49,697 bases of DNA, taken from the NCBI GenBank assembly GCA_026165385.1, contig GCA_026165385.1_4524.2; one strand, written 5' to 3'. A program made the position numbers and the translations under genes. Origin of the DNA: a phage. The notes beneath the pieces are model-generated. The model ran no database searches. It was not told the origin of the DNA and saw nothing but the letters and a program-made list of their open reading frames with translations. Below, in pieces: positions 2,035 to 18,102 of this stretch (the first letter of the stretch is position 1; each line of letters starts with the position of its first letter).

Positions 2035-2106
2035 GGCCCTGTAGCTCAATGGGAGAGCTGTCAGCTCATAACTGATAGGTAGCTGGATCGAAACCAGCCA
2101 GGGTCA
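2035..2106 (+). tRNA. tRNA, anticodon CAT (Met, or Ile if C34 is lysidine-modified)
   Basis: Cloverleaf by eye: acceptor GGCCCTG/CAGGGTC, D-stem GCTC/GAGC, anticodon loop CTCATAA, T-stem GCTGG/CCAGC; CCA encoded at 2107-2109. Confidence 0.75.
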
Positions 2107-2112
2107 CCAATC

Positions 2113-2186
<74 letters not shown>

Positions 2187-2207
2187 CCAACTTCAAGTGA
2201 GGAAAAT

Positions 2208-15014: not shown

Positions 15015-15377
15015 ATGAAAGCATATCAAATTCTTGAAGGTGCACATAAAGGCACTATTTATTTTGAAGACGGTACTCAAGCCCGGATTATTGTCTCTAA
15101 GACTTTTAAAGAAGACGCTATTGTAGACCCGGAAATTTTCTACGGTTTGAATGCCCGTGAAATTGAAATTGAACATCAACCTAAAGTTAAAATTGAAGGT
15201 GGTCAACATCTGAACGTTAACGTTCTGCGTCGTGAAACTCTAGAAGATGCAGTTAAGCATCCGGAAAAATATCCGCAGCTGACCATCCGTGTATCCGGTT
15301 ATGCAGTTCGCTTTAACTCTCTGACTCCGGAACAGCAGCGCGACGTTATCGCTCGTACCTTTACTGAGAGTCTATAA
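15015..15377 (+). CDS. Autonomous glycyl radical cofactor (GrcA/YfiD-like)
   Basis: C-terminus [60 protein letters not shown] matches the glycyl-radical domain of E. coli GrcA as I recall it; 3' part uses GC-rich host-like codons. Confidence 0.8.
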
Positions 15378-16579: not shown

Positions 16580-17122
16580 ATGAGAAAAGCACTACTCGCT
16601 GGTCTATTTGCTCTTTCATTATCAGCACATAGCTCCGAGCATACTTTTAGTAATGTCCAACTCGATAACTTGAATTATGCTTATCAGTTTGGGGAACAGT
16701 TTTCTAAGGATGGAAAATTTAAAACGCATGAAAATATGCATAAGAAAGGACTTGGATACATAATGGCTGCAATACTATGGCAAGAATCATCTGCCGGTAT
16801 TAATCTTAAAGATAAGAAAGGTCACCATGCGTATGGAATGTTCCAAAACTATCTACCGACAATGAGGGCAAGAATTAACCAGCTTGGTTATAATATGACT
16901 GATGCCCAAATTAAGAAAATGCTATCTAAGCGGTCTAATTCAGCCAGATGGGCTTATATCGAATTTTCTTATTGGTTAAATATACATAACGGGGATATAA
17001 GAAAAGCTATATCCTCATATAATGCGGGATGGAAGACAAGTGCTGGAAGTAAATATGCTTCTGAAGTCCTAGAAAAGGCTAATTACCTTAAATCAAATAA
17101 ACTACTGGAAATAAAAGAATGA
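16580..17122 (+). CDS. Secreted lytic transglycosylase (SLT domain) with signal peptide
   Basis: N-terminal signal peptide MRKALLAGLFALSLSAHS; SLT-like motifs WQESSAG, YGMFQ and SYNAGW. Confidence 0.7.
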   Translation: MRKALLAGLFALSLSAHSSEHTFSNVQLDNLNYAYQFGEQFSKDGKFKTHENMHKKGLGYIMAAILWQESSAGINLKDKKGHHAYGMFQNYLPTMRARINQLGYNMTDAQIKKMLSKRSNSARWAYIEFSYWLNIHNGDIRKAISSYNAGWKTSAGSKYASEVLEKANYLKSNKLLEIKE

Positions 17123-17466
17123 CCAAAATGTTGGCTTTAATAGTTGGCTTGGTTTCATTTAACACTCTTGCTAATACTACATATACTGATGTAACGGAGT
17201 ATACAAACAGAACGGCGTCTGATTATTGTGGTAAAAGTCAAGAGTGTAAAGTAGATTTTTCACAAAAATTGTTATATGCGTATAAAGACGGAGAAAAAGA
17301 TGGGGCGTCTAGTAGGTTCAAGGCGTCTACCTTAATTAAAAGATACTATAAAAAATGGCAAATATTAGAATGCTCGGTGGCGGAACCTAAAGATAAGGCA
17401 GCATGCAATTCTATGGTGGACCGTCTAGTTGACTCTTATACTAGAGGACTTGCAGCAAGTGATTAA
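17119..17466 (+). CDS. Secreted/periplasmic Cys-containing protein, 115 aa
   Basis: N-terminal signal peptide MTKMLALIVGLVSFNTLA; four Cys; ATGA overlap with the SLT gene. Confidence 0.55.
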   Translation: MTKMLALIVGLVSFNTLANTTYTDVTEYTNRTASDYCGKSQECKVDFSQKLLYAYKDGEKDGASSRFKASTLIKRYYKKWQILECSVAEPKDKAACNSMVDRLVDSYTRGLAASD

Positions 17467-17923
17467 AAACTATATCAAGGGCGATATTGTCGCCCTGTTT
17501 TCTAAAGGTAATAATATTGCTCATGGGTGTAATTGTTTTCATACAATGGGCGCTGGTGTGGCGGGTCAATTAGCAAAGGCGTATCCAAAAATTCTGGAAG
17601 CCGATAAACTTCAAACCGAATTCGGAGACGAGTCTAAACTCGGGACTTATTCGGTTTATGAAAAATATTTTAAGGCCCATAAAGCTTATTGCTTTAATCT
17701 TTATACACAGTTTAAGCCGGGACCTAATTTTGAGTACTCTGCTTTAATGAATTGTATAATAGAATTAAATGAATTCGGAAAGAATAAGATAACAAAGCCT
17801 GTAATTTATATGCCAAGAATTGGTGCAGGTATTGGTGGTGGAAACTGGGATGTCATCGAAGAGATTTTAGATACGTATTCCACTAAACTAGAAATTGTGA
17901 TTGTTGATTGGGAACCTAAATGA
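17459..17923 (+). CDS. Macro domain protein (putative ADP-ribose binding/hydrolase), GTG start
   Basis: Motifs GDIV..., NIAHGCNCFHTMGAGVAGQLAK (compare NAAN...GGGV.GAI) and PRIGAGIGGG (compare P.ISTG.YG); no in-frame ATG near the 5' end, GTG at 17459 after SD GAGGA. Confidence 0.55.
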   Translation: MIKNYIKGDIVALFSKGNNIAHGCNCFHTMGAGVAGQLAKAYPKILEADKLQTEFGDESKLGTYSVYEKYFKAHKAYCFNLYTQFKPGPNFEYSALMNCIIELNEFGKNKITKPVIYMPRIGAGIGGGNWDVIEEILDTYSTKLEIVIVDWEPK

Positions 17924-18102
17924 AATTGACTAAAGAAGAGAAAACTAAACTGTTCGAACTTATCCATGACCTATTGGATGAGCAAGCAGCCACCAATGCG
18001 TACGATGAATATGCTCCTTTAACAGATGAAGAATATCAAGCATTGATGGAATCATTTGACAGGAAAGAACAAGAACTCATTGACTACGTGAATTCACTAT
18101 AA
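17920..18102 (+). CDS. Hypothetical acidic protein, 60 aa
   Basis: ATGA overlap with the upstream gene. Confidence 0.5.
   Translation: MKLTKEEKTKLFELIHDLLDEQAATNAYDEYAPLTDEEYQALMESFDRKEQELIDYVNSL

Follow-up and report, generated by a model that had tools for sequence, protein, structure and literature searches.

The closest described relative of the gene considered here is tk.4 of phage T4. In a November 2025 preprint, not yet peer reviewed (bioRxiv 10.1101/2025.11.20.689424), a T4 transposon screen on a DarTG2 host returned tk.4 as the single specifically depleted gene, and a clean tk.4 knockout proved to be DarTG2-sensitive. The preprint authors renamed the gene adfM (anti-DarT factor macrodomain) and described enzymatic removal of ADP-ribose from DNA only as something that 'seems likely' (bioRxiv 10.1101/2025.11.20.689424). 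T4 without adfA and adfN had been found to be still DarTG2-resistant (PMC11825919), which the protection by tk.4/adfM explains (bioRxiv 10.1101/2025.11.20.689424). The gene itself has carried an annotation ever since the genome papers on RB69 and T4, and the match of an A1pp (macro) domain to tk.4 orthologues was already made in 2006 (PMC1524935). A second phage protein that goes by the name AdfM, gp104 of PhiKZ, removes T-ADPr from oligonucleotides in vitro (PMC13309987). Among bacterial proteins, SCO6735 of Streptomyces coelicolor cleaves thymidine-linked ADP-ribose from DNA efficiently and protects against DarT; the paper equates its Q85 with K80 of DarG and K84 of TARG1, the Q85A/E variants are inactive, and the mechanism proposed for the enzyme is water-mediated (PMC9411070).

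We describe here the tk.4 gene of the window, by which we mean the whole 49,697-nucleotide stretch of phage DNA that was analysed. The gene is already known, being annotated and having an orthologue with a published role. The only increment here is the swap of the canonical catalytic Lys for Gln84 in the product, together with the separation of this protein from the Lys-type phage AdfM. The Gln-for-Lys point finds no mention in the available text of either the T4 AdfM preprint or the 2006 tk.4 A1pp paper.

The tk.4 gene and its surroundings

Over the 3 kb around tk.4, identity to RB69-like phages (genus Mosigvirus) is 98.5-98.9%; RB69 itself matches at 98.6%, in reverse orientation. Genes at the locus run in the order regB, vs.1, vs, tk.4, tk.2, tk, rI.1, and the regB-vs.1-vs-tk.4-tk.2-tk order is common to the window, RB69 and T4. 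The coding sequence and the features next to or inside it are:

17119..17466, + strand: vs (valyl-tRNA synthetase modifier), upstream of tk.4; phrog_1256 match with E=1.6e-34, and RB69 annotation
17444..17448, + strand: Shine-Dalgarno-like GAGGA, 10 nt upstream of GTG 17459, read from the sequence
17459..17923, + strand: coding sequence of tk.4 (adfM), from a GTG start to a TGA stop; the 154 aa form a stand-alone macro domain
17478..17496, + strand: 8-bp GC-rich hairpin within tk.4 codons 7-14
17920..18102, + strand: tk.2 (DUF7438), downstream of tk.4; Pfam DUF7438 match with E=1.5e-16, and RB69 annotation

Translation of 17459-17923 gives 154 codons and then TGA, 465 nt in total, and the gene touches its neighbors on both sides. 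At its 5' end, tk.4 shares 8 nt with vs, whose TAA stop is at 17464-17466 (GTGATTAA); at its 3' end, the TGA stop and the ATG of tk.2 overlap (ATGA). The annotated RB69 coding sequence is the same gene, with the same 465 nt and the same GTG (NP_861803.1, 'phosphatase; contains A1pp phosphatase motif'). Three amino acids, at positions 32, 73 and 86, differ between the two proteins, so the window phage is a close relative of RB69 and not RB69 itself.

GTG 17459 is the correct start of tk.4. Upstream, the reading frame stays open as far as an in-frame TAG at 17426 and offers just two starts 5' of 17459, TTG 17429 and TTG 17450; the earliest in-frame ATG is codon 30 (17546). In all seven relatives examined (T4, UFV-AREG1, phiR1-RT, PG7, Boboto, Cronus and Entb_45), the codon equivalent to GTG 17459 is ATG, and T4 and UFV-AREG1 have an identical GAGGA 11 nt ahead of it. 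Likewise, the tblastn similarity to distant homologues sets in at GTG 17459, residue 11 of the longer ORF that starts with TTG. The two TTG starts (longest form 164 aa) were rejected because both the homology and the relatives' ATG sit at the 17459 position; TTG 17450 would also lie just 1 nt past GAGGA. A start at ATG 17546 was set aside as well, as it would lose the first beta-strand and the near-invariant H22 and N25. The earlier note had settled on GTG 17459 after GAGGA, with no in-frame ATG nearby, and the RB69 coding sequence and the ATG of the relatives bear that choice out.

The hairpin inside tk.4 (AGGGCGAT-ATT-GTCGCCCT, then GTTTTCT) was marked as resembling a terminator and has a stem of about -13 kcal/mol. 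RB69, T4 and UFV-AREG1 have the surrounding 26 nt without a single difference, though the UFV-AREG1 Tk.4 protein is only 57% identical. The hairpin is absent from phiR1-RT, PG7, Boboto, Cronus and Entb_45, which represent five more distant T4-like genera, even where the protein keeps GDIV. It may act as an attenuator or an RNA stability element, may mark a recombination junction, or may have arisen by chance.

Variation among relatives was also noted at this locus. T4-like phages carry two allele classes of tk.4, a T4 type with 84% identity to the window protein and 225 records in the 80-90% identity band, and a UFV-AREG1 type at about 57%, in which nucleotide similarity is confined to the first ~14 codons. 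Both alleles are found in Tequatrovirus records (L002, 1501-1980, versus L003, 4426-4890), which suggests mosaic exchange within tk.4 among T4-like phages. Close relatives such as Shigella phage JK45, AV110 and APCEc01 have about 414 bp extra between tk.4 and tk.2 that holds two small tk.3-like ORFs (L010, 1924-2339, versus the junction at window position 17920); at this junction, the window and RB69 have no such ORFs.

A few observations concern other genes of the window. The N-terminus of the vs.1 product (16580-17122, + strand) resembles a signal peptide, and the protein matches the SLT lytic transglycosylase domain below threshold (E=1.3e-3, 18.8 bits, cut-off 21.3), in agreement with a 2006 note on vs.1 (PMC1524935). 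Further upstream, vs.6 (15015-15377, + strand) is a 120-aa ORF with a glycyl-radical-type motif, RVSGYAVRF, at its end; in RB69, vs.6 carries the annotation 'autonomous glycyl radical cofactor GrcA'. At 2035-2189 (+ strand), two phage tRNA genes lie side by side, tRNA-Met(CAT) and tRNA-Arg(TCT).

The macro fold and its active site

Tk.4 is a macro domain. The Pfam Macro profile (PF01661) matches it with E=1.6e-6 and 28.5 bits, above the gathering cut-off of 22, and the match spans profile positions 2-117 of 118. A match to phrog_335 ('phosphatase') has E=7e-67, and tblastn finds Tk.4 homologues in 2,798 phage records; chance is far from accounting for such matches. The AlphaFold2 model, for which a 52-sequence alignment was the input, has a mean pLDDT of 95.1 and a pTM of 0.90 and predicts the three-layer alpha/beta/alpha macro fold. 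When this model was compared with the PDB by Foldseek, the top matches were TARG1, Poa1p, BT1257 and the DarG macrodomains. These matches place Tk.4 in the TARG1/ALC1-like class, which holds its nearest structural and profile neighbors and from which the MacroD, viral and PARG classes are clearly apart. The earlier note had called the product a macro domain on the strength of three motifs and had proposed a PF01661 search and structure prediction as checks; the profile score, the predicted fold and the structural search all confirm the call. The motifs themselves are found in the translation where that note had placed them, with GDIV at residues 8-11, NIAHGCNCFHTMGAGVAGQLAK at residues 19-40 and PRIGAGIGGG at residues 119-128.

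Conservation was assessed in a family alignment of 123 sequences, consisting of Tk.4 from the window, T4 and UFV-AREG1 plus 120 database homologues. The invariant or near-invariant residues are H22, G23, N25, C26, G33, A35, D49, N80, Y82, Q84, P119, I121, G122, G124 and W130, and most of them fall within four segments of the gene:

17522..17536, + strand: H22-G-C-N25-C26 motif, with H22 in 120/123 and N25 in 121/123
17546..17566, + strand: M30-GAGVAG36, glycine-rich loop 1, with G33 and A35 in 123/123
17696..17710, + strand: N80-L-Y-T-Q84 motif, with Q84 in 123/123 members
17813..17848, + strand: P119-RIGAGIGGGN-W130, glycine-rich loop 2, conserved in the family alignments

In the first of these segments, H22 aligns with H32 of TARG1 and H23 of Poa1p, and N25 falls in the column of the active-site Asn of DarG (N22 in TaqDarG, N23 in PhiKZ AdfM; both residue numbers from PMC13309987). 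G33 and A35 are also present in TARG1, DarG and PhiKZ AdfM, and by homology loop 1 is the putative diphosphate-binding loop of the macro domain. In loop 2, the 52-sequence alignments show no variation at P119, I121, G122, G124 or W130, and in the larger alignment these residues are present in 120-121 of the 123 sequences.

The Q84 column is where Tk.4 departs from the better-known members of its class. This column holds Lys in TARG1, in the T. aquaticus and M. tuberculosis DarG proteins and in PhiKZ AdfM, and Gln in BT1257. Alignment of Q84 with K84 of TARG1 (LITK) was obtained by hhalign, hmmsearch and MAFFT, and the same column takes in K80 of TaqDarG and its M. tuberculosis equivalent (NFPTK) as well as K78 of PhiKZ AdfM (MFPTK). 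An hhalign comparison of the family profile with PhiKZ gp104 shifted the Lys by one column, within a stretch of low confidence, and was not adopted; MAFFT with DarG, TARG1 and BT1257 gave NxxT[K/Q]. A second difference is found at G126 of Tk.4, which occupies the position of D125, the second catalytic residue of TARG1. With Q84 in place of the Lys and G126 in place of D125, Tk.4 has neither of the canonical catalytic residues. This absence is not evidence of inactivity, because SCO6735 is also without both.

The active site of SCO6735 offers the nearest precedent. The spacing of H24, N27, Q85 and G128 in SCO6735 matches that of H22, N25, Q84 and G127 in Tk.4. The equivalence of Q84 and Q85 is transitive, drawn through K84 of TARG1 and the published statement on Q85 (PMC9411070) instead of a residue-by-residue alignment; in the sequence and profile searches of the PDB, the direct alignment between Tk.4 and SCO6735 (5E3B) covers the C-terminal 33 residues only. 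Tk.4 has the marks of the SCO6735 type, namely Gln at the K80/K84 position and the His and Asn of the first motif. By its active site, Tk.4 would thus belong to the SCO6735 type and not to the DarG type, since Gln84 stands for Lys and N25 and H22 are kept. The invariance of Gln84 and the (near-)invariance of N25 and H22 would also imply a lysine-independent, water-mediated mechanism.

Proposed function in defence against DarT2

Our main reading, to which we assign a probability of roughly 0.78, is that Tk.4 removes ADP-ribose from DarT2-modified thymidines of phage DNA as a counter-defence. The protein would be made from the tightly packed vs.1-vs-tk.4-tk.2-tk gene run, starting at its GTG. 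Host DarT2 would ADP-ribosylate thymidines in single-stranded phage DNA and block replication. Tk.4 would then bind the ADP-ribose in its cleft through the two glycine-rich loops and hydrolyse the thymidine-ribose bond, with Q84 and N25 positioning substrate and water. Replicable DNA would be restored, and Tk.4 would in effect be an orphan antitoxin. Reversal of DarT action, an idea put forward in the earlier note, fits the T4 orthologue, for which a role against DarTG2 was shown genetically; nothing examined spoke for the alternative offered there, in which the protein would modulate ADP-ribosyltransferases of the phage itself. The DarTG2 phenotype is that of T4 Tk.4 and not of an RB69-type Tk.4, and we infer both the activity on T-ADPr DNA and the protection of this phage. 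Hydrolysis by Tk.4 is argued from the analogy with SCO6735, because the catalytic Lys of DarG, TARG1 and PhiKZ AdfM is absent.

The same missing Lys could instead point to a Tk.4 whose main effect on DarT2 comes from binding the toxin, or from shielding modified DNA, as a stoichiometric inhibitor like AdfA/AdfB. In vitro, DarT is inhibited even by inactive variants of three macro domains (SCO6735 Q85A, DarG K80A and TARG1 K84A), most strongly by that of SCO6735, which acts by interaction (PMC9411070), so Tk.4 may contribute in part non-enzymatically. As the main mode, we regard this as very improbable. The residues of the ADP-ribose cleft (H22, N25, G33, Q84, G122 and G124) are strictly conserved in 123 diverse phage homologues, which argues for conserved chemistry over recognition of a single toxin, and Tk.4 is without the C-terminal DarT-binding domain of DarG.

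It is very improbable, in our judgment, that the main substrates are ADP-ribosylated proteins or RNA, whether carrying the marks of phage Alt, ModA and ModB or those of other host ADP-ribosylating defences or toxins, with DarTG2 protection as one facet of a wider role. Macro domains are found in about 41% of myoviruses, which is more than any single defence explains, and uracil ADP-ribosylation of RNA has reportedly turned out to be reversible, which would favor such substrates. Against protein substrates, the T4 ADP-ribosyltransferases modify arginine, and macro domains generally do not cleave this linkage. TARG1-class enzymes are promiscuous, and SCO6735 also acts on Glu-linked protein ADP-ribose (PMC9411070); its activity on RNA phosphate ends would count in the same direction and is described inconsistently within one paper. 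However, the available text of the T4 preprint does not report tk.4 as a hit for other defence systems or for the medium comparison (bioRxiv 10.1101/2025.11.20.689424). The CmdTAC paper names macrodomains in its reference list only. Scant probability also attaches to a Poa1p-type ADP-ribose-1''-phosphate phosphatase, as in the legacy 'phosphatase / A1pp motif' annotation, that clears a soluble product left when RNA loses its 2'-phosphate, or another soluble ADP-ribose derivative: the name stems from domain matching and no assay, Poa1p has Ser where the Tk.4 family has its invariant Gln, DarTG2 sensitivity is the sole known phenotype for a Tk.4 protein (bioRxiv 10.1101/2025.11.20.689424), and no Tpt1/KptA-type source of substrate was identified in the tk.4 neighborhood.

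The preferred reading has some practical use. RB69-type phages serve as a standard test phage for DarTG1, since neither their AdfA nor their AdfN is active. With Tk.4 intact and fully conserved, protection of these phages from DarTG2 is nonetheless predicted.

Comparison with known macro domains

T4 Tk.4 (AdfM) and the window protein share 84% identity along their full length (153 aa), without gaps. The two genes share the slot between vs and tk, the start position and the invariant residues, including Q84; none of the approximately 25 substitutions falls at a family-invariant position. They differ in that the window gene starts with GTG and not ATG and encodes 154 instead of 155 aa, and in that T4 has two small tk.3-type ORFs downstream that the window is without. 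Both identity and gene position place the window protein in the T-even Tk.4/AdfM orthologous group, and by these measures the ORF is the RB69-type orthologue of T4 tk.4 (adfM).

Among defence libraries, Tk.4 matches DarG models only (PADLOC DarG, E=5e-9; NCBIfam DarG, E=7.5e-8). The match to the NCBIfam model (NF048014) reaches 32 bits, where the equivalog cut-off is 250, and covers model positions 4-148 of 338, which means that the 154-aa Tk.4 matches the N-terminal macro part of DarG and not its C-terminal DarT-binding domain. DarG proteins (T. aquaticus, 5M31/5M3E; M. tuberculosis, 5M3I) have the Lys motif NFPTK where Tk.4 has NLYTQ, so that the catalytic Lys (K80 in TaqDarG) is missing from Tk.4 and Gln84 stands in 123 of 123 family members. 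DarG also comes with its C-terminal DarT-binding domain and an adjoining darT, whereas Tk.4 has neither: the genes that adjoin tk.4 are vs and tk.2, and no darT lies next to it. PhiKZ gp104, the other 'AdfM' (L004, 12518-13006), is a DarG-like, Lys-type macrodomain of a chimallivirus with its catalytic Lys in MFPTK, and it is remote from Tk.4. Its match to DarG has E=9e-25, and its hhalign match to the Tk.4 profile has E=1.6e-8. Because gp104 is far nearer to DarG than to Tk.4, the two proteins named AdfM are different lineages, and the T-even and PhiKZ 'AdfM' look like separate recruitments.

The best structural and profile matches of Tk.4 are human TARG1/OARD1, yeast Poa1p and Bacteroides BT1257, and each differs from it in an instructive way. 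TARG1 has a K84/D125 dyad where Tk.4 has Q84/G126. BT1257 has the Asn and Gln of the motif in common with Tk.4 (NMIGQ versus NLYTQ) and has no functional annotation, its PDB name being 'conserved hypothetical protein'. Poa1p is a phosphatase with Ser at the position of the Tk.4 Gln (CLFTS); of its mutated positions H23, S30 and F152 (PDB 6LFS, 6LFT and 6LFU), H23 aligns with H22 of Tk.4, and S30 with T29 by our reading of the alignment.

SCO6735 (PDB 5E3B) is a TARG1-class protein that is recovered both by Foldseek and by the Tk.4-family profile (E=2.4e-13). Like Tk.4, it has Gln at the catalytic-Lys position and equivalents of the His and Asn, and it is free-standing with no partner toxin; unlike Tk.4, to which it has about 22% identity, it is bacterial and DNA-damage-induced. 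This likeness leads us to a tentative proposal, which we consider possible and on balance doubtful, that T-even Tk.4 belongs to a separate Gln-type lineage (SCO6735/BT1257-like), is not a captured DarG and removes base-linked ADP-ribose by a lysine-independent, water-mediated route. If this were true, DarT2-reversing macro domains would have entered phages on two or more occasions, as the Lys type in chimalliviruses and as the Gln type in many myoviruses, the T-even phages among them. The Gln type might then also have broader substrates, such as protein Glu-ADPr and RNA-linked ADPr, and counter more than DarTG2. The Gln-for-Lys site thus offers a concrete hypothesis, and it sets apart two unrelated proteins that share the name AdfM.
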